Virus genome (UHGV): UHGV-0087143
Origin: a virus
DNA length: 11,682 bases
Reading direction: 5' to 3' (one strand)
The position numbers and the translations under genes are program-made. The notes beneath the pieces were generated by a model. It was not told the DNA's origin. It made no database searches and saw nothing but the letters and a program-made list of their open reading frames with translations. Shown one piece after another: positions 1-11,640 of this stretch. Position 1 is the first letter of the stretch. Each line of letters opens with the position of its first letter.

Positions 1-219
1 CTGATCCTGATCGTCTTGCCTTATTGAATATGATTGCTATTTGCATTTAAAATCGAGACCTGGTTTTTCTACTGAAATGATTATGACTTCAATGACCCTT
101 GAATGAAGTCTATTCGGTTTTCTTTAGATGTTCGCCTCACATAATCTTCAAGTGATGTTCCTTACATCTCCCTAGAGCGTTAAGATAGTTAACTGATTGA
201 GTTTTCAGGGTATGAAAGG

Positions 220-885
220 ATGAGCAACACTACCGACATCTTAAGCACGATAGCTGATATCACTATGGCTGGTACTGCTGTATGGGCTGCATTCAAAGCT
301 AATGATTGGTTTAAAACCAAGCGTCTTGAGAGTGCTGAAAACTTCTATAAAGAAGTACACAATCTCCATAAACGTTACTATTCAGCTATCCAATACGTTG
401 AGGATTCAAGAAGAATATTTGATAGTCAGTATGGGTTGCATTCGCCAATATCTGAACCTAAAGACAAGTCATTGCAATGGGGGGTTAAATCGAACTCTTA
501 CAAAATCATCGCTGAACTAGATTATCTGGCATCGTCACTACAAATGATGGATGCAATGGGTAACAAACTTAGCCCTAAATCGGCTTCACTGGTTAATGAT
601 ATGATGGAAGCACATGGACGATTCTGTAATGATGTGATGAACTTCAATGACTCAGTTTGGAAGGTTATAAGGGCAGGTATAACTGAAGAGAACATCCCAC
701 ATACGCGAGGCTATGTGAACGGCGATTACATGACTATCCTTACCAGTATGGATGAACCTGTAAGAATATCTTTTAGGTTAAAAGAAATCAGTTTTAAAGA
801 TTTTTACCTGCATGAAACTACTATGCAGTCAGTAATAACGAGGCTGAAATCGCTTATCGCCAGAACAGGTAAAAACAGGACATAA
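220..885 (+). CDS. Hypothetical protein, 221 aa, with N-terminal hydrophobic segment (ILSTIADITMAGTAVWAAF)
   Basis: Long ORF from ATG 220; weak SD-like AGGG 9 nt upstream; no domain recognised by eye. The 302-520 track ORF is nested in another frame and treated as spurious. Confidence 0.6.
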   Translation: MSNTTDILSTIADITMAGTAVWAAFKANDWFKTKRLESAENFYKEVHNLHKRYYSAIQYVEDSRRIFDSQYGLHSPISEPKDKSLQWGVKSNSYKIIAELDYLASSLQMMDAMGNKLSPKSASLVNDMMEAHGRFCNDVMNFNDSVWKVIRAGITEENIPHTRGYVNGDYMTILTSMDEPVRISFRLKEISFKDFYLHETTMQSVITRLKSLIARTGKNRT

Positions 886-897
886 ACAGGTTAGTAC

Positions 898-1015
898 CTA
901 TGCAATTTAAAGGCATTTTCCCAAGTATCTATGCAATCCTACACAGATTCTATGCAGTATCGATATAGTCTCTTTTTAGCGTAACCTATTGAAATATATA
1001 GAGAATCTATGAAGT
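898..1015. repeat. Cluster of four CTATG(C/A)A(A/G)T motifs (898-906, 929-937, 950-958, 1007-1015) plus a diverged ~22-bp direct repeat (965-986, 1011-1032)
   Basis: Read directly: cCTATGCAAT, tCTATGCAAT, tCTATGCAGT, tCTATGAAGT, all same strand; atagtctctttttagcgtaacc vs gaagtctcttttcagggtaaac. Confidence 0.5.
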
Positions 1016-1496
1016 CTCTTTTCAGGGTAAACTGTATCGTGTTAGTCGTCCCTCTCCAGACACTACATACAGTGCTATATACAGGGATATATAACGATAT
1101 ATAGTTGTTTGACCACTACCAATATTCCCTCAAAGTGACTATCAAGCTGCTTAACAGTTTCCCATGTGAAAGTTAGGAGGTGATGGTTATAGTTCCTTCG
1201 TAGTTCCTCTTAAAAAATCACTTGCAGACACCTTAATCTCTATACAGATTTCATGTAGAACACGATTAGTACGTAGAAGAGTCATTATGTTAAAAACACA
1301 CTGTGTTTATATCAGTACTGATTTATAAGGGTTTTGTGTATTGGGTGATAAGAGGCTATACAGCACCTTGAGAGCATGTCTTCTAAGTCATTGACATATA
1401 AGGTCACAGAAGTTTGTGTCTGTTACAGAGAAAACTGGACAGGACTTCACAGAACTATAAAATGTTACAGCTATTGATAGGTGAAATCTTCTTGAT

Positions 1497-1553
1497 AGAT
1501 GCTATGAAGTGTGATGAAGGCTTCTTGAGGTGGAGTTAACAGATGCTATGAAG
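1497..1553. repeat. Two perfect copies of 13-mer AGATGCTATGAAG, 44 bp apart (1497-1509, 1541-1553)
   Basis: Exact 13-bp direct repeat; shares the CTATGAAG core with the 898-1015 cluster. Confidence 0.6.
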
Positions 1554-2028
1554 AAAGTCAATAGTTGGTTATAGATATTTTAACTGCTTTTGCAAAGGGG
1601 GGTGCTATATCGTGAATCTGGGGTACTTAACAGCCATCAATCATGAGGTAGATTAGGGGTTGGTACAAGCCCAACTAACCGAATCAACTGTGTAGATATT
1701 TTTTAAGATTATCGGTGAAGGGGGAATGCAGAGGGGGTACTATGATTTTTATAAAAATTTTCAGAAGCCAAATAACCATTGTACAGATTTTATACAATCC
1801 TACCAAGCCTCATAGTTGATTCGATTAGGTGATTCAGTAATGAATTACTTCATGAAGCTAATCTCATAGAAAGCTCTGTAGCGAGTTTTAACCCCATTTT
1901 TAGGGGTAGTCTATAGGGATGTACCACCCACCTTAAAATAAAGGGGTAAAATCGCTTAGAATGCGTTACAGAGCGTCTGAGAAGCTATATTCACAGATTT
2001 TACTAAAGTCTCAGACTTCTAAGTAGTC

Positions 2029-2338
2029 TTTTTAACAGGAGGGGTTCCCCTATGGTCACATATCCCCTCTCTCGTTTAGTGGCCCTTGATAGCACCCGAT
2101 TAATAACCTAGAGAGTATGCCTGTAAAACTTCTGTATCAGGTCAACTATAAGAGGTCTGGATATTACCTTGTAAGATTCCTGGTAGTGATTATGCAGAGG
2201 GCTTGATAAGAGTGTTTAACGGGAGGAAGAGATATCTTTTTAACAGGAGGGTTCTTTCTCATGTATCACCCTCTCTTCCCGCTAAGTAAGCTACACAGAC
2301 CTAGAGAACATGCCTTCACAGCATCTATATCAGGTCAG
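2029..2338. repeat. Two diverged ~100-115-bp modules (about 2029-2145 and 2237-2338), each beginning TTTTTAACAGGAGGG
   Basis: Shared blocks in the same order: TTTTTAACAGGAGGG, CCCTCTCT(C)..TTAG, CCTAGAGA(G/A)(T/C)ATGCCT, TCT(G/A)TATCAGGTCA. Related CTCT(C)TCCCG(C/T)T(A/T)AG boxes recur at about 2727-2740 and 2910-2923. Confidence 0.6.
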
Positions 2339-2425
2339 ATTTAGAGGGTTTTGATAGAGTCTGTAAAGGTACTTGACAGGTAACTATGAAGTTGCTAGGA
2401 AGAGCTGTTTAACGGGAGGAAGAGA
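2213..2425. repeat. Perfect 20-bp direct repeat TGTTTAACGGGAGGAAGAGA (2213-2232 and 2406-2425)
   Basis: Exact match read in sequence; a related GTTTAACGGGGG lies at 3239-3250. Confidence 0.8.
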
Positions 2426-2847
2426 ACCATGAAACCGAAGGTAGGTTCTGTCTTAACAGTGAAGTCTTAAGAAATGTCTTGAGAGTTACCTAAACAAGCC
2501 TCTTAAGTAAAAGACAACACTCCAGAAAGAGTGTCTGTTTAACAAACTTCTCAAAAGCTCTTAAAAAGTCTGTTAAGAGAGGGCTATGTGAACATATCAT
2601 ACCATTTTGTCAATGCTTTTGTCTTTGACCTAAATCAATAAAATGTATCGTTTGATATGGTTTTAAGCAAGACGGCTAAAAAAATCTTTTTAGAGGGGCG
2701 CTTCGCTTGGGGTCACTATGTTCTTTCTCTCCCGTTAAGAGGGAAGTTACAGGGACATTTCAAAGCCCTGATAAGGTAAGCCCGATGATAACAGAAACAG
2801 AGGGCAAAACCACTTATCAACACTGTGAACGAATAACGTAAAGGGCT

Positions 2848-2884
2848 GGTTAAGAAGGTCGGTTAAGAAGGTCGGTTAAGAAGG
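2848..2884. repeat. Tandem array, about 2.8 copies of 13-bp unit GGTTAAGAAGGTC
   Basis: Copies at 2848-2860 and 2861-2873, partial copy 2874-2884; related TTAAGA(A/G)GG boxes at about 2464, 2570, 2735 and 2932. Confidence 0.8.
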
Positions 2885-2950
2885 GAGCTTCCCTTTCTTG
2901 GGTGTCGCTCTTCTCCCGCTTAGTGGATAGCTAAGAAGGCTTGAAGTTAT

Positions 2951-3126
2951 CTGTGAAGGTACTGGACAGTCTTATATATTGGGTGATTACAACTCGTTGA
3001 AAAATAAGTATTTTTAGAAATCACTGTTAAGGTTACAGAGTCAACTGTGAAGAGACTTGTCAGTTCTCTATATTGGGTGATTACAACTTATTGAAAAGTA
3101 AGAACTTTTAGAAATTACTGTCAGAG
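2951..3126. repeat. Two copies of a ~82-bp direct repeat (2951-3032 and 3045-3126), period 94 bp
   Basis: Identical 20-mer core TATATTGGGTGATTACAACT at 2975-2994 and 3069-3088 with ~85% identical flanks; partial third copy TATTGGGTGAT at 1339-1349; CTGTRAAGGTACTTGACAG-like heads also at 2361-2379. Confidence 0.8.
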
Positions 3127-3240
3127 AGGTGAATACTTGATAGATACAGCTTTCCGGTTCTGTCAAGCTATTTTTTAATAGATAGCACAAAATGCTAAAG
3201 ATACCCCTATACCATCTCGTACAGGGGGGGTTGAAGGAGT

Positions 3241-3429
3241 TTAACGGGGGTCTGTGTGGTTATCTGTTCTGGTCCTGTCCTTGAGGTCAAACGACCATTC
3301 ACGACCAAACAATCTGAACACGATAAACACTCTGACGATGAAATAGCGAAGTAGTAAGCCTGCAATCAGCCCAACACCTCCACCAGCCCATACATCAGGT
3401 GACCCCAGCTCAGGAGGGAGATTTACCAT
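3241..3429 (-). CDS. Small predicted membrane protein, 62 aa (one hydrophobic helix GGGVGLIAGLLLRYFIVRVFIVF, charged C-terminus)
   Basis: Track ORF on minus strand, divergent from the 3633 gene; weak SD GAAGG upstream; candidate promoter upstream. Could still be a chance ORF. Confidence 0.3.
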   Translation of the reverse strand: MVNLPPELGSPDVWAGGGVGLIAGLLLRYFIVRVFIVFRLFGREWSFDLKDRTRTDNHTDPR

Positions 3430-3514
3430 TCAATGTACCTTCTGTGTGCAATGCAAAAAAACATGTGACCATTCTCGATAGCCACGCTTCATATTTTCCC
3501 TCTCCCATAAACCC

Positions 3515-3544
3515 ATTATACCATAAATGTTAATAAATTGTTAA
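3515..3544 (-). promoter_or_regulatory. Candidate sigma70-type promoter (minus strand): TTAACA, 18-nt spacer, extended -10 TGGTATAAT
   Basis: Minus-strand -10 TATAAT is the complement of 3515-3520, TG of the extended -10 at 3522-3523, -35 TTAACA is the complement of 3539-3544. Confidence 0.4.
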
Positions 3545-3551
3545 AAAATAC

Positions 3552-3580
3552 TTGACATTAGTCTTTGAAACTGCTAGTAT
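3552..3580 (+). promoter_or_regulatory. Candidate sigma70-type promoter (plus strand): TTGACA, 17-nt spacer, TAGTAT
   Basis: TTGACA at 3552-3557 and TAGTAT at 3575-3580 with exact 17-bp spacing, ~50 nt upstream of the 3633 start codon. Confidence 0.5.
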
Positions 3581-3632
3581 TGTATATATAGTTAACAGGA
3601 AATTAACAAACACTAAGAGGGTCAGAATATGA

Positions 3633-4187
3633 ATGCAGGATTCAGAATTTAGAGCGATGCTTCAGGCATCAAGAGAACGCAACAAGCACAACTCCTACGC
3701 TTACACAGACACCCCCACCAGCTACGAAGTACCAGCCTTTTCCAAAACCGAACGTAAAAACATTGAAGCGGTCATTCGTAGCATTACGCCACGAGACAGA
3801 TTTATGCCAGTACGCAAAGAAAAAGAGAATACTTTAAAAACTTTCTTGATGAGCTTTGATTCTTACGAGCAACTACCATCAAAAATTGAAGATGTAATTA
3901 TCGGTACTTGTCGCAGTCTTGGAAGAGATAATTATCACCGGAAGGTTTTTTATTTACTGCGAAGTCTTGATGAGATTAGTTCAAGCACAGTGACGAGCCA
4001 TCTTCAAAGACAAGCAACCAGACTTAGCTACGAATTACCAAGTGATAAATATTGCGCTAACTTAGCCACTATTTGCATGAAAGTTATTGAGACAATTAAT
4101 CATCATGCGGAAGTTGGAAATATCAGCCTTACAACCAGTGAACCAGACTTTGAATTTGACGTATACGCACAAGCAGAGGAATTTTAA
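3633..4187 (+). CDS. Hypothetical protein, 184 aa, first gene of a rightward operon
   Basis: ORF with SD AAGAGG (3615-3620) upstream of ATG 3633; no domain recognised. The antisense track ORF 4062-4442 is treated as spurious. Confidence 0.65.
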   Translation: MQDSEFRAMLQASRERNKHNSYAYTDTPTSYEVPAFSKTERKNIEAVIRSITPRDRFMPVRKEKENTLKTFLMSFDSYEQLPSKIEDVIIGTCRSLGRDNYHRKVFYLLRSLDEISSSTVTSHLQRQATRLSYELPSDKYCANLATICMKVIETINHHAEVGNISLTTSEPDFEFDVYAQAEEF

Positions 4188-4188
4188 A

Positions 4189-4476
4189 ATGGAAAATAAA
4201 CACACACTAACCAGAGTTACAAAGACAGCCTTTGAAGAACTTAACCGAATCAAAAACATTACAGGTCTGCCACACTCAGCAGTGATGAAGCTTGCAATTA
4301 ACCGTGATATTAACGAACAAGATTTGCTTAATAGTCGCTTAGAGGCTGCAAGACACCATATCAGGATTAAGCAAGATGACCTTGATAGTCTGAAATCTTT
4401 AAATGCTTTTGGACTGGATTTAGCAAGGTTGCTAAGCATCAAAATTCACAAGTTAAAGTTAGAGATGGAGGTTTAA
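4189..4476 (+). CDS. Small putative DNA-binding protein, 95 aa, ribbon-helix-helix-like N-terminus plus C-terminal coiled coil
   Basis: Start chosen at ATG 4189 (GAGGA SD 8 nt upstream, directly after the upstream stop) instead of the overlapping in-frame track start 4087; N-terminal TRVTKTAFEELNRIKNITGLPHSAVMKLAI resembles a strand-helix-helix fold. Motif-level only. Confidence 0.5.
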   Translation: MENKHTLTRVTKTAFEELNRIKNITGLPHSAVMKLAINRDINEQDLLNSRLEAARHHIRIKQDDLDSLKSLNAFGLDLARLLSIKIHKLKLEMEV

Positions 4477-4862
4477 TGTATGACTTTTATAAACATCGTG
4501 ACCATTTGGTAAGATTTGACGGTAAAGTCTGGAAAGACGTAACACAAACCAATAAACCCAAGTTTACCCACCAGCAATTAGCCTCAAGATTTGATATCTG
4601 GACTGAAGCACAAAAAGATAATGGTGATTTCGAGTTTATCAGGGGTTTTGATTATGCTTACGAAGACGACCTTAAAGACGCCATTAAATTAATTGAGAAT
4701 TTCAACTCTATTAAAAATGGTGACAAGCACAAAGCCAATGGCAACAGATACGATAAAGATTTAATCATTGATGCAATCACCAAAGGACAATCACAAAGTT
4801 ATATTTCTGAGAAATACGGTTTATCACGCAGTCAATACTACAAGATTAAAGCGTCTGTGTAA
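4476..4862 (+). CDS. Putative helix-turn-helix DNA-binding protein, 128 aa
   Basis: Start ATG overlaps upstream stop (TAATG, translational coupling); C-terminal IDAITKGQSQSYISEKYGLSRSQYYKIK looks like a resolvase/sigma-region-4-type HTH. Confidence 0.6.
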   Translation: MYDFYKHRDHLVRFDGKVWKDVTQTNKPKFTHQQLASRFDIWTEAQKDNGDFEFIRGFDYAYEDDLKDAIKLIENFNSIKNGDKHKANGNRYDKDLIIDAITKGQSQSYISEKYGLSRSQYYKIKASV

Positions 4863-5000
4863 GCCTGTGAGAATGAGTGAGACTCAAAGATGAGCTACCC
4901 TATTACTAAGGTGTCTCACTCCCTCTGTAACCCGCATGGTTACTGGCCTCAGAATGGCTATTTTGGCAGATTTAAGATGTGTTTTTAGAGGATTTTAAAA

Positions 5001-5324
5001 ATGAACAATTACCCGCTACAGATTTTCGTTGATAGCGACACCGCTCTGATGATTCAGGCTTTCAGTGATTCCGGTGTATCAATTGACTTTGACAGGCTGT
5101 TAAGGCTAATGGCTAATAACTCAGAAACAATTGAAGATTTTATTCAGTCGGTGGAGTTTAACGAGCCTCGAATGATGCTACCAATTAAAGACAGCAACAT
5201 GAAAAGATTGGTTATCGAGCAAACGAACAAATACAGCGTTAGCCCTGAAAGATATCTCAAGGCAGCTATAGCAATTTTGTACGCTGACAATATTTTGGTG
5301 ACGGATTCGAAGGTGGTGCATTAA
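5001..5324 (+). CDS. Hypothetical protein, 107 aa
   Basis: ORF from ATG 5001; no domain recognised. Confidence 0.55.
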   Translation: MNNYPLQIFVDSDTALMIQAFSDSGVSIDFDRLLRLMANNSETIEDFIQSVEFNEPRMMLPIKDSNMKRLVIEQTNKYSVSPERYLKAAIAILYADNILVTDSKVVH

Positions 5325-5389
5325 TGGAATTGGTGATTATCTGTTTTGTATTGATTGGTATGATTGCAGGTGCATCTATTAAAGTATAA
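5324..5389 (+). CDS. Possible 21-aa hydrophobic peptide (MELVIICFVLIGMIAGASIKV)
   Basis: ATG overlaps stop of the 107-aa gene (TAATG); strong SD GAAGGTGG 7 nt upstream; entirely hydrophobic. Below the track length cut-off; speculative. Confidence 0.25.
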   Translation: MELVIICFVLIGMIAGASIKV

Positions 5390-5454
5390 ATGTTACCAAT
5401 CTGTTAAAAAGCTGTTGACAAATAACCTTAAGCATGACATAATTTTAATTATGG

Positions 5455-5481
5455 GAGAGTAATTCTCTCTTATATTTTTTT
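5455..5481 (+). terminator. Candidate rho-independent terminator for the 3633-5389 operon
   Basis: Stem GAGAG/CTCTC (5455-5459 / 5465-5469), loop TAATT, followed by TATATTTTTTT. Confidence 0.4.
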
Positions 5482-5659
5482 CAATAATCCGATGGATGGA
5501 TGGATATTCTGAGTTGGTGAGGTATGTTCTATACCGAACATTCTGAAAGGTGCAATGCTTTTCGCTACATGGCCTCTTATATAACCTGAGAGGTCATCTC
5601 GAAAAGTACTCTTGTTCATTCGTTTGAATCCTTCAGAAGTTTTAATTTCTTCACCTTAT

Positions 5660-5702
5660 GAATAGCCCTTTATAAGAAATTATCTAGGGCTATTCAGTTT
5701 TT
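5660..5702 (+). terminator. Candidate stem-loop/terminator: 10-bp stem GAATAGCCCT / AGGGCTATTC, 16-nt loop, then AGTTTTT
   Basis: Perfect 10-bp inverted repeat at 5660-5669 and 5686-5695; T-run only on the plus strand. Confidence 0.35.
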
Positions 5703-5776
5703 AAAAAGCATACTTGGCAAACCGCCTTTTAAGCCTCTTCTAAGTTCGAGGATGTCAGGTGTGCTTTTTAAAAACT
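5696..5776. promoter_or_regulatory. Perfect 15-bp inverted repeat pair AGTTTTTAAAAAGCA (5696-5710) / TGCTTTTTAAAAACT (5762-5776), 51 bp apart; operator-like
   Basis: Exact reverse complements; each contains the palindrome TTTTTAAAAA; ends 36 bp upstream of the 5812 start codon. Confidence 0.4.
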
Positions 5777-5811
5777 GAAACATAAATTATCTTAGAAGAG
5801 GAAAGGTATTA

Positions 5812-6516
5812 ATGGCTATCCGTGATGAAAATGAAATGATTATTGAAAGCCGACCAAGTGCACTTGATATTCACGAATTAACTTTGCGTGAATCTTTTGA
5901 TAGAGCTTGGCGGGAATCACACGAAGTAAATAAAGGTCCATATATTCCACCAGAACCACTCGAGATTCCAAGAGTTGAAATTGATTTTTCTATGAACGAA
6001 CAGTGTGAACTTGATTTGAAGTTGAAGCTACAACGCCGATATTTCCAAGCTATTAAAGACTCTCAAGAAGCAATGAGAAGTGTTTACGAGAAAATTCAGT
6101 CCAAGCTTGAAGACGAAATCGACGAAATGGCTATTTTGATGGAGCTTCAAACCAATTCTTATGCTTATTTCTCTCGACTAGACCGTGACGGTTGGGGGTA
6201 TGACCCTGTAGAGATTGGTAAAGTGATTGCAGATTTACCAGAAGGTCAAAGGGTTATTCGTACGGAAAGGGCCATCAGAGCGCCACATCGACTGTCTCTA
6301 ATTGTTGCTGATAAATCACAAGCTGAGCTTGAAGAAATTGCCAAAGAGAAACTGATGAAAGCAAGAGAAAATGAGATTAATTTGCTGAAATCAAGACTGG
6401 CTAAGCTGATTAGTGACCATCAAGCGCTGGCTAAGGAGTACCGTCAAGAGTTGGCACAGATTATCAGCTTCAATGATTTTCTGAGTGTTCCACGAGAATT
6501 TAGCAAGGCTGTTTGA
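5812..6516 (+). CDS. Hypothetical acidic protein, 234 aa, with C-terminal coiled-coil-like region
   Basis: ORF with SD GAGGAAAGG upstream of ATG 5812; no domain recognised. Confidence 0.65.
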   Translation: MAIRDENEMIIESRPSALDIHELTLRESFDRAWRESHEVNKGPYIPPEPLEIPRVEIDFSMNEQCELDLKLKLQRRYFQAIKDSQEAMRSVYEKIQSKLEDEIDEMAILMELQTNSYAYFSRLDRDGWGYDPVEIGKVIADLPEGQRVIRTERAIRAPHRLSLIVADKSQAELEEIAKEKLMKARENEINLLKSRLAKLISDHQALAKEYRQELAQIISFNDFLSVPREFSKAV

Positions 6517-6539
6517 TTATGAATTAAAAGAGGTGATTA

Positions 6540-6752
6540 ATGTTTGAAGAACGTTTAGAGACTATTCGGTCTGTTTGCGAAAGACTCCAGCTACAACCAA
6601 ATAGACAAAAGCTACGAATTAAGAATAACCGTCATTACATCACCTCACACAAACCAAAAACACGCAAGATTCCAAAGTGGTGTCTTGATAAATTACCAAG
6701 TGATTGTCAGATTGTCGGTGAAGATGGTAATTATTATCTTGTCAGACATTAA
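6540..6752 (+). CDS. Small basic protein, 70 aa (three Cys, Lys/Arg-rich centre)
   Basis: ORF with SD GAGGTG (6530-6535) before ATG 6540; function unknown. Confidence 0.5.
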   Translation: MFEERLETIRSVCERLQLQPNRQKLRIKNNRHYITSHKPKTRKIPKWCLDKLPSDCQIVGEDGNYYLVRH

Positions 6753-6802
6753 AAAAGAATTGGTTGGGTATATGAGATAGGTTCTATCGAATCTATAGTA
6801 CG

Positions 6803-6844
6803 GGGAGAGATTATCGATATTATTCGGTAGTTTCTCCCTTTTTT
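6803..6844 (+). terminator. Candidate terminator: stem GGGAGA/TCTCCC around a 24-nt loop (containing palindrome TATCGATA), followed by TTTTTT
   Basis: GGGAGA 6803-6808, TCTCCC 6833-6838, T6 at 6839-6844; loop unusually large so strength uncertain. Confidence 0.4.
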
Positions 6845-6893
6845 GTATATGAGGATAGTCTTCTATCCGAAGTCTATGAGGTGAAAAATATGA

Positions 6894-8978
6894 ATGAGCA
6901 AATTTACAGTTGATAGTTTTATTGTTGAGCTGGGCTTCAGTGAAAACGTTATTAAGGGATTGCAAAGAGTTGAAAAGGCAGCTTTGCAGTCAGCACAAAG
7001 AATTGAACGTAATTTGAATAGAGCGTTTAAGGTCGATACCAAGCAACTTGACAGCAATTTAACGGCTTCTTTAAAGTCAATGGAAGGGAAAATTAATAAG
7101 ACCTTTGACAAGATTGAGCAGCGTCTTAAAAACACTAGAGCGTTTAAGATTAAAACGGAAATTGAGGATACTTTAAAGCCACTTAGACAGCCAAGACAGC
7201 CACGAATTAGCGGCAACAGAGCAATCACAGCAGCTTATTCAGCGAATATGAGCAAGTTAAAGGGCTTTGACCCTATTTTGCAGAAATACATCAAATCTCA
7301 GTTTTACGGGCTATCTGCTAAAGCTGGGTCAATGGATAATTCAAAATTCAATGAGAAGTTAGCTCAGCTAAATGCTTCAGTCAGAGAAGCAATCACTAAA
7401 GCCAGAGGTCATACATCCACCAGCAAAAACAATCACAGTGAAAATGCTTCAAATGGTTTAGATGTATTAGCTACAAGTGCAATCAAAGCAGGTACAGCCA
7501 TTTATAGTTTTCAGACAGCCTTAGAAGCTTATAGGAAGGTTATGGAAGTTGGTCTGAAAAAAGAAGCATCACAACGAGCGGCACAATTCGTTTTAGGTGA
7601 TGAAGGTGCTAAACGAGCTACAGAATTTGTTAAGAATCTTGCTGATAGTAGTGGTGTAGACCAGATTGAAACATTAAGCAGTTTTGCTAAGTTTTCCGCT
7701 GGTGCTGGTGATATGAATGCAGACCAGAAAGAATCCTTATTTTCTAATGTGATTGGTACATCCCGACTAATGGGTTTAAGCACTGATGAGATTAACGGGA
7801 TTCTAAAAGCTTTCGAGCAGATGGCGAGCAAGGGCAAGATTCAAGCTGAAGAATTACGCGGTCAGTTAGGGGACAGAATGGCAGGTGCTTTTCAGTTATT
7901 TGCCAGAAGTCTTGGGATGACTACAGAAGAATTAGACAAGGCCATGAAGGACGGTAAGGTTCTTTCTAAAGATGTTCTTCCTAAAGTATCCGCTGAAATG
8001 GGAAGGATGATTGATAAAGCTGGTGGATGGGAAAAGATTATTAACTCTACTCAGACGCAGTTAGGCCGCCTTTCTAATTCATGGAATAATAATCTGGCCT
8101 TAATGTTCGACGGTTCACAGGAAGGTTTAACAGACTTTACAAGGTCACTGACTAATTTACTTAATTCACTAGGTGGTCAATCTAAAAATCTTGGTGAACA
8201 TTTTGGCGACTTGATGAAAAGCATGTCAAACGGTGTTGATGATTTAACCACGATTAGCTACCGAGCACAGGGATTCTTTGACAGAGTGACCCTTGCTTAC
8301 AGAGAATTAAATGACACTCAAAAAGCTGTAGCTGATGGTATCGCAAATGGCCTGTTAAGTGCATTAAAGGGGCTTGCTGGTATAGTCGCTGTAAGGTCTG
8401 GGATTGGTGCTGTAGGTGGTATCTGGAACTTAATTAGGGCTATTTCCACGCTTGGAAATGTAGCAAATACAGCAGCAGGAAGAATCAATTCACGTTCTGC
8501 TGGTAGTGTTGAAGGTGGTAAAGGAAAATTATCTGTAGCTGATGCAATTACCAAAGTAATGATTGTCGGTATGGCAACTGATGTGATTAACTCCATTGTT
8601 AAACCACTCTATGAACGCCAGATGAGTAAGTCAGATAATCCAATTGATAAAGTTGTAAGGTCAAAGGTGGAACCCACAGACCAAGCATTGACTGGTGACA
8701 TGAACTCTTTAGCTGCTGTTTTATGGGCTATGGTTCAGGGCAAATCAAAAGATGTTCCACAGTTTTCACCGGAAGCATTAAATAATCTGAAAGGTCGAGT
8801 GGAAACATTCACACAAGATTTAAAGGTTATCAAGCCGTCAGTAAATATTCAGCCTCAGACAATCAATATCACAACTCAGACGGTACTTGATGGAAAGGTT
8901 ATTGATGAAAGAACCACATCGCATATTAATCGTATGCAGGAAGATACCTTGATTAGCTCAGCTTACCCAGAGGAATAA
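6894..8978 (+). CDS. Phage tail tape measure protein-like, 694 aa
   Basis: Internal segment ...GLSTDEINGILKAFEQMASKGKIQAEELRGQLGDRMAGAFQLFARSLGMTTEELDKAMKDGKV... matches the conserved tape-measure core (ELRGQLGERLPGA-type motif); helical N-terminus and Gly/Ala-rich hydrophobic segment (GIANGLLSALKGLAGIVAVRSGIGAVGGIW) typical of tape measure proteins; SD GAGGTG (6878-6883) before ATG 6894. The four antisense track ORFs inside it are treated as spurious. Confidence 0.8.
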   Translation: MSKFTVDSFIVELGFSENVIKGLQRVEKAALQSAQRIERNLNRAFKVDTKQLDSNLTASLKSMEGKINKTFDKIEQRLKNTRAFKIKTEIEDTLKPLRQPRQPRISGNRAITAAYSANMSKLKGFDPILQKYIKSQFYGLSAKAGSMDNSKFNEKLAQLNASVREAITKARGHTSTSKNNHSENASNGLDVLATSAIKAGTAIYSFQTALEAYRKVMEVGLKKEASQRAAQFVLGDEGAKRATEFVKNLADSSGVDQIETLSSFAKFSAGAGDMNADQKESLFSNVIGTSRLMGLSTDEINGILKAFEQMASKGKIQAEELRGQLGDRMAGAFQLFARSLGMTTEELDKAMKDGKVLSKDVLPKVSAEMGRMIDKAGGWEKIINSTQTQLGRLSNSWNNNLALMFDGSQEGLTDFTRSLTNLLNSLGGQSKNLGEHFGDLMKSMSNGVDDLTTISYRAQGFFDRVTLAYRELNDTQKAVADGIANGLLSALKGLAGIVAVRSGIGAVGGIWNLIRAISTLGNVANTAAGRINSRSAGSVEGGKGKLSVADAITKVMIVGMATDVINSIVKPLYERQMSKSDNPIDKVVRSKVEPTDQALTGDMNSLAAVLWAMVQGKSKDVPQFSPEALNNLKGRVETFTQDLKVIKPSVNIQPQTINITTQTVLDGKVIDERTTSHINRMQEDTLISSAYPEE

Positions 8979-9212
8979 ACAATGTTAGAGCTACTAATAT
9001 TTATTGCCACACATGGCAACCTATTAATCTTTATCTAGTATGACGACTCAACTATGAATAGTCGAATGCTACGTGAAATCTCCTGAACAGATATACCCAC
9101 TGAAAAATAGAATTTACGTAGCTCACGCTTAACAGAGAAAATACTTATATATCAAAGGCTTGGTTAAAAATGACTGAAATACACTAAGTCTTTGAAATCA
9201 AAGGAGAATTTA

Positions 9213-9986
9213 ATGATTTACTCTAATCAGATTCGTTACAGTGGCAAAGATGGCATCTATTTCCACTTAAGAGATAATGTAGATGCCTTCTTAACTTTAT
9301 CAGCAACTGAGAACATGGAATTTGATAGCCCTATGCAGGTGACTACACAGAACATGCAATCAGGGCAAACCGTCACAGATAATGTGCAAAGAGCACCCAG
9401 AACAATCACTATTAGTGGTGTCGTTGTAGTTGGCTATGAAGGAAGCTTATTATTAACTCGTCAGGGTCAATTAGTAGAAAACTTCATCGACACCCTTGAA
9501 AGCTGGCGTGACCAGAAGCAGATTATTTCGGTCATCTGTAAAGATGGTATCAAGATTGATGACTCCATTATTACAAGTTTTAAAGCCTCTAAAGATGTTG
9601 GTATTTCAAATGGTCTAAGAATCCAGCTAACTTTTCAGGAAATTAACTTTAAAGCTGTTGTGGGGCAGACTGATATCTCGGCTGCAACTGGAAAAGCCGC
9701 GACTACGAATGATGGTGGTGTGACCAGTAAAAAGAATGCGGGTAACGTGACCACTGAACGCAATAACGCACCTATGCTGATGTGTCAGGAACTGTACAGT
9801 TACTCAGCATCTGAGCTATCTGATGAAGCGCTAAGGGTCCGTAGCAATTGCTCTAAAAATGTCACGGTGAAAGATGGTGTAAGCACCTTCACAGCCTCAG
9901 CTAATGAGCAGGCTTCAAAAGTGCTTAAGTCGGGTAATGCTTTACGGAAGTTTTCTGTGAATCCGAATAAGAAGGGCACTTATTGA
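9213..9986 (+). CDS. Hypothetical protein, 257 aa, downstream of the tape measure gene (possibly tail-associated by position only)
   Basis: Start chosen at ATG 9213 (SD AAGGAG 6 nt upstream) instead of the in-frame track start at 9192, which is a TTG codon; no domain recognised. Confidence 0.65.
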
Positions 9987-9990
9987 GACA

Positions 9991-10013
9991 TAAAAAGGGG
10001 CTTCATAGCCCCT
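9991..10013 (-). terminator. Rho-independent terminator for the recombinase gene, shared between convergent genes
   Basis: GC-rich stem AGGGGC/GCCCCT (9996-10001 / 10008-10013), 6-nt loop; on the minus strand the stem is followed by a U-run (complement of A-run 9992-9996); lies between the 9986 and 10019 stop codons. Confidence 0.6.
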
Positions 10014-10018
10014 GAAAA

Positions 10019-11539
10019 TTACAGTTGATAAGCGTCAATATCCAGTAGCTCTTTATCAGCAATTTCAAAGATTGGTGACCCATCATTTAGCGGTAACGGG
10101 TTTGTAGGTATGGTGATTTCAGTGTCGTTCTGTAGCGTTACAGTTACCGAATCCTTACCCAATGTAAGCCCTTTTAGATGTTTGGACAAAATCAACTGAC
10201 ACTCGACACGACCCGCTTTAGTTGTCAGGTCAATATCTTTAAGCTGGGGTAGTTCCTTATCAGTGAGTGAAGCCTTACGCCTCATGTTATCAATAGTAGT
10301 CTGTAGTTCTGTGCGCTTCTGGTTAAGTCCCTTCACCTGTGCTTTCAACTCTGTAATGTCATCCATTTCAAGAAGTAGGGCGGTAGCTTTCTTGATTCTG
10401 GCTGTGACAATTTCAACCTCATGCTGTAGAGATGCAATCTTCCCCTCTGCTTCTCCATCATTCCCCACGTCAATCATCCCCAGAAAATTATCAATCATCC
10501 ATCGGTCAAACGGTTTACGCTTCAACGGTGGAACATCACAGCGACCGTCTAAGTGGTTATTGCACCTGTAGACCCCTGCATACTTATTCTTGGTTCCGGT
10601 AGGATGGACACTAGCCCCACACTGACACCGGAATAATCCCTTGAAGATGTTAATCGTTAATGGGTTATCACTTGCAGGTGTGCGGCCTTTACGATTCTTG
10701 TCGAGAATCTCTTGAGCTTTATTGAACGTTGCAGCATCTATAGCGGCTTCGTAGTAGTTCGGTATAGCGGGGCGGTCATTACGCTGTGATGCTGGTAACG
10801 TGCCTATTGTTGTCTCCGACCTTAAGATGGTGCGTACAGAATGGACGCTAAACCCATTAGCATCTTTACGGCGACTAAACGACTTTATACCGTTGCTTTG
10901 AAGGTGACGGGCGATGTTATGCAGACTTTCACCACTTAGCAGCAGCTTGAAAATCAGTCTTACAGTCTCAGCGTGTTCATTGAGTTTGAGAGTATCGGGG
11001 TCAATCCATCCGGGAACCATCTTTGTTAAACGTTGTTTACCAGCAAGGGCAAGTTTTGCACGTTGTTTCCACTTCTCGCTAACACGGAAAGACTTCTGCT
11101 TACTCTCCTGATGCGCTAGGTAGCTTTTAACCCGCTGAATGATTGAGATTCCTAAATCATCGGATAGAGCATCCCTTGTGTAGATTAGCCCATCCTGTAG
11201 AGTGTGAATCTCGATACCATGAGCAATAATGCGATTCATCAAGGCTTCTGTTTCAAGATGCTCTAATCGGCCTATACGGTCGATACTCTCAACTAGCAGA
11301 ATTGTACCTCCTGGAAACTCCCCAGCCTCAATACGGGCTAACATGTCACCAAACTGACCAGTAAGGTGTTTACCTTTGTAACCGGATAGACCCTCATCAC
11401 TGAAAGACGCTACTACTTGAGCATCGCTATTCTTCTTCAACCATTGTTTGAACAGGTCGTTTTGTCGTCTGGTTGAATCAGCACCTTCAGCACCTTGTGT
11501 GGCTGATGAGAATCTCAAGTATGTTATTACGGTTCTCAC
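10019..11539 (-). CDS. int: Large serine recombinase (serine integrase), 506 aa
   Basis: N-terminal resolvase-type catalytic domain with the serine nucleophile motif (YLRFSSATQ) and downstream LLVESIDRIGR; central recombinase region; Cys-rich zinc-ribbon-like segment (CQCGAS...YRCNNHLDGRCD); C-terminal coiled-coil-like region. GTG start with SD GGGAG 9 nt upstream. Antisense track ORFs 10263-10571 and 10914-11111 treated as spurious. Confidence 0.9.
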   Translation of the reverse strand: MRTVITYLRFSSATQGAEGADSTRRQNDLFKQWLKKNSDAQVVASFSDEGLSGYKGKHLTGQFGDMLARIEAGEFPGGTILLVESIDRIGRLEHLETEALMNRIIAHGIEIHTLQDGLIYTRDALSDDLGISIIQRVKSYLAHQESKQKSFRVSEKWKQRAKLALAGKQRLTKMVPGWIDPDTLKLNEHAETVRLIFKLLLSGESLHNIARHLQSNGIKSFSRRKDANGFSVHSVRTILRSETTIGTLPASQRNDRPAIPNYYEAAIDAATFNKAQEILDKNRKGRTPASDNPLTINIFKGLFRCQCGASVHPTGTKNKYAGVYRCNNHLDGRCDVPPLKRKPFDRWMIDNFLGMIDVGNDGEAEGKIASLQHEVEIVTARIKKATALLLEMDDITELKAQVKGLNQKRTELQTTIDNMRRKASLTDKELPQLKDIDLTTKAGRVECQLILSKHLKGLTLGKDSVTVTLQNDTEITIPTNPLPLNDGSPIFEIADKELLDIDAYQL

Positions 11540-11611
11540 GGTGATAAACTCCCATGCAATTGATTATCATTTAAAGATGAACTTATAAACGTTATGGCTA
11601 ATGCTACAATG

Positions 11612-11640
11612 CCGAATAGCTACAATACAATGACCCTTGA
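11612..11640. other. Candidate recombinase attachment-site junction (right end), partner of 90-117
   Basis: CCGAATAG, 8-nt spacer, CAATGACCCTTGA, ~75 bp upstream of the recombinase start; sequence beyond 11640 turns GC-rich (CCTCGCCGCTTCCCCTGGCCGACG). Confidence 0.3.

Follow-up and report, generated by a model that had tools for sequence, protein, structure and literature searches.

The 2.35-kb stretch at positions 886-3240 of the virus genome UHGV-0087143 (the window, analysed at its full length of 11,682 nt) belongs to an integrated element of ~11.5 kb, and it is probably the cis-acting control hub of a previously undescribed Escherichia coli satellite of Felixounavirus phages, similar in kind to the noncoding region (NCR) of the phage-inducible chromosomal island-like element (PLE). 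Two parts of it would have packaging and replication roles: a junction block homologous to helper DNA at the boundary of the direct terminal repeat (DTR), and a right-hand part with a probable origin. An initial annotation had already proposed a site of helper-dependent cis-acting functions in a satellite. This proposal is partly supported, in that the region is conserved and contains a homologue of the helper DTR junction, while its function is deduced. Coordinates refer to the window unless wV8 or an L-number is named; L-numbers are fetched loci, mostly satellite relatives, with L012 and L013 together being wV8. Conservation was measured against eleven distinct variants.

The region is noncoding, neither protein-coding DNA nor decayed genes. 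As first reported, it contains no open reading frame (ORF) of at least 62 aa: the longest has 44 aa, a length as short as which was seen in 0.6% of 1000 dinucleotide shuffles (mean 72 ± 17 aa), and the longest stop-free run is 58 codons versus 84 ± 17 in shuffles. Substitutions among 13 relatives do not follow a 3-base period across the region (593/629/642, p=0.35), while the same test gives a strong third-position excess in four flanking genes (p 6e-8 to 2e-59). The indels, among them 13-bp copy changes and 1-nt events, have lengths not divisible by three, and PGAP annotation in RefSeq genomes places nothing in the region. Reading its GGAGG boxes as ribosome-binding sites of mini-ORFs of 6-27 aa was rejected, as the peptides are unconserved (with a frameshift in L009) and codon periodicity is absent. 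By homology, the region starts at ~862-870 rather than 886, and its final 37 bases (3204-3240) form the hairpin that terminates the 62-aa gene on the minus strand.

The DNA is highly repeat-structured, with 39 exact direct 12-mers versus 0.3 ± 0.8 in shuffles and 61 exact direct 10-mers versus 5.2 ± 2.9. CTATGMAR boxes number 11 in the window versus 2.2 expected, 7 of them in the region and all on the + strand. The other repeats listed in the initial annotation were likewise recovered, namely 13/14-mer pairs at 893/924 and 930/1791, the perfect 20-mer pair TGTTTAACGGGAGGAAGAGA at 2213 and 2406, the 13-bp tandem array of GGTTAAGAAGGTC (2.8 copies, 2848-2884) and the ~82-bp duplicated unit, which measures 83 nt (2945-3027 and 3039-3121, 82% identical). 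Only their description as at least five unrelated families needs revision, since the families are partly nested in one another: the 17-mer, 58-mer and 20-mer pairs are parts of one ~195-210-bp tandem duplication (2024-2234 and 2232-2427; 116 of 211 columns identical), and the 19-mer family at 1331/2969/3063 falls partly within the 83-nt units.

The element is bounded by att repeats and encodes a large serine recombinase, tape-measure and Dit-like tail proteins, a 221-aa accessory ORF, a minus-strand 62-aa ORF and six small ORFs without a family. Searches of the window ORFs against Pfam, PHROGs, NCBIfam and PADLOC (hereafter the four family databases) detected no capsid, terminase or replication families. 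The tail genes identify the likely helper as a Felixounavirus (Felix O1/wV8-like): the Dit-like protein has matches in 301 phage records, with 75-76% amino-acid identity in the best of them, and almost all of these records are Felix O1/wV8-type myoviruses of Escherichia, Salmonella, Shigella, Citrobacter and Erwinia. A 510-bp tract of the gene (9237-9746) has 95.1% DNA identity to wV8 45515-46024 and the remaining gene is far more diverged, which points to recent recombination between helper and satellite. Because phages of the Felix O1/wV8 type are lytic, the element is best read as a satellite. A relative is carried by ~9% of complete E. coli genomes; among 5,426 genomes, the Dit gene was found in 495, the left part of the region in 549 and the block 1571-1800 in 494. 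Literature searches returned no paper describing a satellite of Felixounavirus or Felix O1-like phages; one study reported tape-measure gene transfer between virulent coliphage and E. coli loci without a callable prophage.

The helper wV8 has an ORF-free stretch of its own (13884-15531, 1.65 kb), which lies between convergent gene blocks, is full of short degenerate repeats and, in our literature searches, had no published function. Felixounavirus phages are of the DTR packaging type, with a 581-bp repeat by PhageTerm (PMC8303462) and a DTR also reported elsewhere (PMC11737134). Both ends of PV700625 share an identical 544 bp and those of OR498728 likewise 591 bp, and these terminal duplications map to wV8 ~14351/14372 to 14939/14953, in line with the published results. 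They thus lie inside the noncoding stretch, which therefore holds the physical ends of the helper.

It is the right boundary of this DTR that has a counterpart in the satellite. In the relatives L003, L004, L009 and L010, the junction block aligns with 70-71% identity over 161 bp to wV8 14903-15059 (E 1e-8 to 1e-11, pairwise), including the 27-nt exact run GATATTTTAAAATTCTGCAAAGGGGGT. When the relatives' block was compared with all phage records (2.3 Gb), 254 matches were obtained (best E 7e-9), always in unannotated DNA and in records that are Felixounavirus-type by name except one Staphylococcus-named. Deposited helper termini fall 20-35 nt past the TGCAAAG island, and conserved islands stand on either side of the mapped terminus in phages and satellites alike, this window included. 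TGCAAAGGGG and TATAAAAATTTT are spaced 110-112 nt apart in phages, and most satellites have a spacing of 111 nt; TGCAAAGGGGG and TATAAAAATTTT are each single-copy in wV8. The block of this window is more diverged and carries a 24- to 48-nt hairpin insertion, giving a spacing of 159 nt with all four islands kept; copies of the insertion occur elsewhere in reverse orientation, as 41-nt matches at 97.6% identity in L021, L059 and L063. The block is present in every variant examined. Of the functions offered in the initial annotation, a packaging region thus receives direct sequence support from this junction homology, and we propose the block as a site of recognition and cutting by the helper terminase. 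On the helper side, wV8 gp46 (DUF5681), encoded beside the terminase gene region, is a candidate small terminase.

The right-hand part, in turn, appears to work like an iteron origin, and the initial suggestion of a replication origin with iterons is plausible in view of the iteron-like boxes and a module swap, although no initiator is recognisable in the window. All 6 matches to the box TWARCRRGRGRRR lie within 2032-2922, versus 0.10 expected, and none of 200 shuffles reached 6; looser copies stand at 2240 and 3239, both on the + strand. Matching satellite loci (22 of 32) have 1-6 copies each, with none in L010 and none in wV8. The TTTAACGGGAGGAAGAGA boxes and the 13-bp array are candidate protein-binding sites, AT-rich stretches occupy 1741-1780 and 3078-3120 (windows of at least 80% AT start at 3078-3080), and a search of the region for host-factor sites turned up a single DnaA-box-like site (8/9, at 2814) and nothing that fits the IHF consensus. 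A minimal right segment, 2718-3240, accompanies orf62 and orf184 in every variant having those genes; of the right part, L004 has kept nothing but 2718-3430. The L010 lineage has, in place of window 1800-4466 (the right part of the region together with orf62, orf184 and orf95), a cassette encoding Dam and a protein with a replication-initiator/O-like PHROG match (E 4e-11), a pattern that a swappable initiator-plus-origin module would give. We do not claim membership in the iteron class but only a similar way of working, because an O-like initiator is found in the L010 cassette and none in the window. Indeed, the four family databases gave no initiator family for any window ORF and no match for a repeat-binding protein among the small ORFs, and none of 23 representative relatives of orf184 has a domain. 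The alternative cassette (L010 11692-13928; L004 11662-12324) encodes a Dam-family methylase and a 306-aa protein matching initiator/O-like/DnaD-like PHROGs.

Beyond the junction block, the satellite and the helper share shorter sequences. The 13-bp array has the 10-mer GTTAAGAAGG in common with two conserved helper sites flanking a TATATA block, and in L024 and L021 part of the array is replaced by a palindrome internal to the helper DTR (in L024, a 25-nt exact match to wV8 14702-14726). Both noncoding regions show a five- to twenty-fold enrichment of CTRTRAAG and GTTAAGA, their k-mer profiles are reciprocal best matches (z 3.2-4.6), and several relatives carry helper intergenic segments. Wholesale copying of the DTR was considered and rejected, as the main DTR repeat of the helper, CTTGTTAG, is not the repeat of the satellite; the dominant CTTGTTAG/TTGTTAAG repeat is rare there. 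The assembly of phage dune (MN850636, L016/L017) starts and stops at the two GTTAAGAAGG sites flanking the TATATA block, with ends equivalent to wV8 ~15317 and 15440 and ~120 bp left unassembled, so this stretch seems hard to assemble or sequence.

The mimicry may go further than one boundary. In a tentative extension, which we consider somewhat unlikely, the universal core (862-1194 together with 1575-1798) would mimic the whole concatemer junction of the helper, including a ~0.6-kb terminal repeat of the satellite's own between copies of both helper cutting sites, and its dense helper-type motifs would in addition act as a decoy for terminase and DTR-binding proteins. The motif AAGTTACGTAAAAAGAGCTATA sits 20-45 nt outside the left DTR boundary of the helper and is conserved in wV8, ZX4221, MET-P1-301 and dune; its possible counterpart at 963-996 has a local alignment score of 33 versus 23.2 ± 2.4, which 1 of 300 dinucleotide shuffles reached. 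If the complete mimic were real, this would be the first satellite known to hijack the DTR-type packaging of a virulent coliphage, and if the decoy were real, noncoding DNA itself would add to phage interference in ~9% of E. coli genomes.

Several points weigh against a packaging and replication hub. The window's own block gives a marginal direct alignment to wV8, with 2 of 300 shuffles reaching its score, word-7 BLAST and nhmmer of the window region against wV8 returned marginal matches only, and BLAST of the whole region against 50,697 phage records returned nothing. The helper homology became visible only once satellite relatives were used, and the junction homology between window and helper is established transitively, through those relatives. 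The DTR boundaries are based on two deposited records, which differ by 14-21 nt, rather than on reads, and the match to the left DTR junction is tentative, being weak and inverted. Similarity in k-mers and motifs may partly reflect noncoding-versus-coding composition. As for the origin, the TWARCRRGRGRRR pattern was defined post hoc from these very sites, their spacing is irregular and their orientation mixed, and orf184 is accompanied by just two iteron-like boxes in the L004 lineage. Finally, public assemblies yielded neither a packaged nor an excised form: contigs of 11-12 kb in ENA, Logan and metagenomes are integrated copies, flanked by short pieces of chromosome and lacking overlap between their ends, an invariant 31-mer had no match in IMG/VR, and a 25-mer from 2590-2700 was found in 35 metagenome stretches and 3 IMG/VR contigs, the contigs being 33-55 kb long. 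A single scan of genome contigs for cross-genus co-variation of helper and satellite returned only one truncated Escherichia albertii locus.

Conservation bears on whether the region has a function at all. Alignment of relatives, which the initial annotation had named as a check, finds it conserved at least as well as the flanking genes and present in essentially every family member, with identity mostly at or above 0.9 versus 0.72-0.90 in the adjacent orf184. It is also a mosaic, in which blocks are swapped, the 13-bp array varies from 2 to 4 copies, and L001 and L006 have lost one tandem unit and hold a single merged module instead of two. Cargo genes (Dam methylase, AP2/HNH endonucleases, a small serine recombinase) stand inside it at different points in relatives. 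Such block replacements, changes in repeat copy number, small mobile hairpin insertions and scattered cargo genes are what would be expected of a functionless recombination scar or stuffer, made of leftovers of exchange and cargo turnover and tolerated for the sake of element length. We regard this explanation as quite improbable, since identity among variants equals or exceeds that of adjacent genes and some stretches are 100% identical in 9 variants (bin 2601-2650), no variant lacks the left core or the junction block, both of which occur in as many genomes as the tail gene does, the island spacing is kept between phages and satellites despite only 70% identity, and GATC is fully avoided, a feature common to the remainder of the element and to the helper.

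Another explanation is that the region mainly controls transcription, with promoters, operators and terminators copied from the helper timing the satellite genes, rather than serving as packaging and replication sites; we consider this unlikely, although it is compatible with the packaging and origin reading. In wV8, GTACTTGACA is confined to two large divergent promoter regions (23810 and 66289), and it occurs once in the region, at 2369, while a TACTTGACA -35 element with two copies of AAATTGTTAA lies upstream of orf184. Relatives copy helper intergenic segments from 23.9 kb and 59.4/60.7 kb: L004 and L010 carry 58 bp, 86% identical, from the 23.9-kb divergent promoter region, to which window 2496-2542 has a weak similarity (wV8 23878-23924, 79% over 48 nt, E 0.02), and L020 and L023-L025 carry ~90 bp of a helper (NNACC)n array that is found twice in the replication-gene cluster of the helper. 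There are also terminator-like hairpins at 2516-2535 and 3204-3227. However, the best homology spans the helper DTR boundary exactly and not a gene start, sigma-70-like promoters occur at chance level (18 found versus 18.3 expected), and most repeats have no downstream gene within 2.3 kb. In the divergent promoter region of orf62 and orf184 (3515-3592), the two AAATTGTTAA copies are in tandem and directly upstream of the TACTTGACA element. The + strand of wV8 has TACTTGACA only in the two large divergent promoter regions, with one minus-strand copy at 25148, and TTGTTAA, the class to which AAATTGTTAA belongs, is the commonest heptamer class of the helper DTR.

The small-RNA gene cluster of the initial annotation fared less well, and we regard it as highly improbable that the repeats are RNA genes or structural modules of one or more noncoding RNAs, regulatory or directed against the helper. 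The segment 1873-1975 is the only strongly structured one, folding much more stably than shuffles (z -5.5 and -4.4); it has a 70% identical paralogue, inverted and adjoining an HNH endonuclease gene in relatives, that keeps the closing stem with a different partner sequence. The + strand of the region also has a positive G+C skew, as in + strand genes. Against this, the Rfam 15 covariance search of the region at E up to 10 gave only two chance-level matches (E 2.7 and 4.8), ARAGORN found no tRNA or tmRNA in it, and promoter-like sites are not enriched. Outside 1800-1980, folding z-scores scatter around 0 on both strands, so that most of the region folds like shuffled DNA. The structured segment itself is missing in 7 of 11 variants, its reverse strand is nearly as stable (z -3.8), and it would also fit a DNA-level element of a homing-endonuclease cassette. 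A second intergenic region, 5480-5810, folds with z -6.8 and has a 26-bp hairpin at ~5693-5775 plus shorter ones; in Rfam it gave a sub-threshold match to rhtB only (29 bits versus the 55-bit gathering score).

Returning to the packaging and replication hub, we envisage the following course of events. Upon helper infection, the element would excise via its serine recombinase and be amplified, with the right-hand boxes, the 13-bp array and the AT-rich 83-nt units acting as the origin. The neighbouring small genes would belong to the same swappable replicon module. The helper terminase would recognise and cut the junction mimic, so that satellite DNA enters helper-made capsids, which would be fitted with tails including the satellite's own tape-measure and baseplate-hub proteins. 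The region would further serve as a zone where recombination with the helper takes place and where cargo and homing-endonuclease genes land.

The closest known counterpart is the NCR of PLE: on all sequence criteria examined, the region seems to work like it, with no homology to PLE detectable by protein-family search. The PLE NCR is 2.7 kb long, has four repeat types and holds the ori (PMC7145576), and PLE carries an 89-bp pac mimic that is 71% identical to the ICP1 pac site and needed for transduction (PMC11417361). Both are integrated satellites of a virulent myovirus (ICP1 for PLE) with a large serine recombinase and a multi-kb, repeat-rich, ORF-free region, homing endonucleases move between helper and satellite in both, and both have a helper-packaging mimic of ~70% identity (89 bp, 71% and 14 identical bp in PLE; ~160 bp, 70-71% and 27 identical bp in the relatives of this element). 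In contrast, family searches of the window ORFs found no RepA_N or other PLE-type domain, host and helper are E. coli and a Felixounavirus here but Vibrio cholerae and ICP1 there, and this element has tail genes (tape measure, Dit-like). The helper of PLE packages by headful from pac, whereas that of the present element has defined ends with a direct terminal repeat, so that a DTR junction would be mimicked; the functions of PLE are experimental and those given here are deduced. There is also a likeness to the Felixounavirus noncoding region itself (wV8 13884-15531), which is likewise ORF-free, has degenerate short repeats, the junction block, GTTAAGAAGG sites, TATATA-rich blocks and CTRTRAAG/GTTAAGA enrichment, and contains zero GATC; however, the window aligns with it nowhere beyond the junction block, the common motifs stand in a different order and the satellite box is absent from it.

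More distant parallels are found in satellites of other helpers. P4 has a cos site in common with its helper P2, a temperate cos phage, and its ori and crr, built of long direct repeats with short iterons, are bound at the iterons by its own primase-helicase initiator. The present element would resemble it in the use of a helper packaging site and a repeat-built origin, the 83-nt units recalling the layout of crr, but no primase-helicase initiator is recognisable here and there is no sequence similarity. In phage-inducible chromosomal islands (PICIs), including the Staphylococcus aureus pathogenicity islands (SaPIs), iteron clusters flank an AT-rich stretch and are swapped together with the cognate initiator gene, and some islands (SaPIbov5-type) do without a small terminase of their own and have copied the packaging site of the helper. 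The iteron/AT-rich layout, the module swapping and the packaging-site copy would be shared; PICIs differ in having tyrosine integrases, Pri-Rep initiators and temperate helpers, and neither the integrase nor the Pri-Rep marker was found in this element with Pfam or PHROGs. T7-like DTR phages have their packaging signals at the terminal-repeat boundary amid short-repeat arrays, the same layout of boundary and array as in the helper region mimicked here, although the phages and sequences are unrelated, and we know of no satellite that exploits a T7-like DTR concatemer junction.

If the proposed hub is real, a PLE-like parasite has gone unrecognised in about 1 in 11 complete E. coli genomes; it would exploit Felix O1-like phages, which are widely used in typing, biocontrol and therapy, and the noncoding region would be a handle for its packaging and probably its replication. 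The range of helpers whose packaging sites are mimicked would then grow beyond the cos and pac types to include one with defined ends and terminal repeats, and the unannotated repeat region at Felixounavirus genome ends would gain its first functional clue. Short segments (~220 bp for packaging, ~520 bp for replication) might serve in helper-dependent transducing vectors or in predicting hosts that blunt a therapeutic phage.

Table 1. Features of the noncoding region and its element in UHGV-0087143, with the number of variants aligned per segment (a dot denotes no assigned strand)
Feature	Position	Strand	Sequence, conservation or remarks
Putative att core, 13-nt direct repeat	90-102 and 11628-11640	.	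CAATGACCCTTGA; copies bound the ~11.5-kb element
Accessory cassette with 221-aa ORF (220-885)	124-861	+	Many relatives without cassette, noncoding region then directly follows att
Universal left core	862-1194	.	11/11 variants, identity 0.76-0.96
Left-core repeats (repeat search)	864-891		AACAGGTAAA x2.7
Left-core CTATGMAR boxes (repeat search)	898, 929, 950, 1007
Left-core 37-nt pair (repeat search)	951-987/997-1033
Left-core TATATA-rich 12-mer array (repeat search)	1063-1093
Weak inverted match to helper motif	963-996	-	AAGTTACGTAAAAAGAGCTATA; tentative; ~580 bp left of block, roughly one DTR length
Conserved segment	1195-1570	.	18-mer pair TTRAYAGATGCTATGAAG at 1492/1536; 8/11 variants, identity 0.91-0.98; near-invariant 1201-1500
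Junction block	1575-1798	+	Homologue of helper sequence straddling right DTR boundary; proposed terminase recognition/cutting (packaging) site
Junction-block conserved islands (multiple alignment)			GATATTTTAA..TTTGCAAAGGGGG, GGGTACTTAACAG, AGATATTTTT, TTTTATAAAAATTTTCAGA
Variant-specific insertion in block	1652-1694	.	Hairpin GGGGTTGGTACAAGCCCAAC plus flank
Structured segment	1873-1975	+	Closing stem CTCTGTAGCG/CGTTACAGAG and internal hairpins; aligned in 4/11 variants only
Two tandem modules	2024-2234, 2232-2427	+	Each opens with TCTTTTTAACAGGAGGG and closes with TGTTTAACGGGAGGAAGAGA
Iteron-like boxes	2032+, 2066-, 2216+, 2409+, 2726-, 2910- (span 2032-2922)	as given	TWARCRRGRGRRR; satellite-specific
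Terminator-like hairpin	2516-2535	-
AT-rich, nearly invariant segment	2590-2700	.	TTTGTCAATGCTTTTGTCTTTGACCTAAATCAATAAAATG..., between convergent iteron-like boxes
13-bp tandem array	2848-2886	+	GGTTAAGAAGGTC; 2-4 copies among array-bearing relatives
Two 83-nt units	2945-3027, 3039-3121	+	AT-rich half and motif TATATTGGGTGATTACAAC; candidate origin; 10/11 variants, 0.90-0.97
Intrinsic terminator of minus-strand 62-aa gene (3241-3429)	3204-3227	-
Tape-measure (6894-8978) and Dit-like baseplate (9192-9986) genes	6894-9986	+	Pfam TMP_3, Dit_like
Large serine recombinase (integrase)	10019-11539	-	Pfam Resolvase, Recombinase and Zn_ribbon_recom; PHROG integrase
Variants aligned	862-1194		11/11
Variants aligned	1195-1600		8/11
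Variants aligned	1751-1800		11/11
Variants aligned	1801-2250		4-6/11
Variants aligned	2251-2700		9/11
Variants aligned	2701-3450		10/11

The chromosomal setting and the accessory slot vary among relatives. In 10 loci encoding the identical 221-aa protein, opp, cls, kch and yciI lie directly outside att, with yciI nearest, and relatives with other recombinases are located at ymdF/wrbA or beside yecN. L002 and L007 are 99.8-100% identical to this window. L020 aligns to window 1-123 and then from 862 onward, and L011 is without the 221-aa gene. This ORF has no family match in the four family databases, and its slot beside att, a position typical of cargo or defence genes, holds other ORFs in relatives (e.g. 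277 aa in L030).

GATC is absent from the element (103-11640; 0 versus ~41-48 expected) and from seven other satellite variants, as it is from the 88.5 kb of the helper wV8 (0 versus ~300 expected); the sole GATCs of the window, at positions 3 and 9, are in the chromosomal flank. Despite this absence, the noncoding region of some variants holds a Dam methylase gene.

Small mobile or periodic sequences complete the picture. A small serine recombinase of the DNA-invertase/resolvase type (182-191 aa) replaces 1195-1570 in some variants (L023 3042-3590, L024 2490-3038 and L025 2555-3103, each 182 aa; L035 2992-3567). A ~25-40-nt hairpin module, TTAGGGGTTGGTACAAGCCCAACTAA, occurs in varied places and both orientations among variants, like a miniature mobile insertion: at window 1652-1694, where it interrupts the junction block, L021 5318-5358, L063 4293-4333 and L024 ~4190-4225. 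The pentamer-periodic (NNACC)n array, which this window does not carry, is ~60-80 bp long and preceded by TTTTTAACGTGGCTAC; it is found at wV8 59436-59532 and 60704-60794 (L013 704-794) and, once per variant within the satellite noncoding region, at L020 3807-3903 and L023 3825-3914, and its gene-strand transcript would be G-rich.

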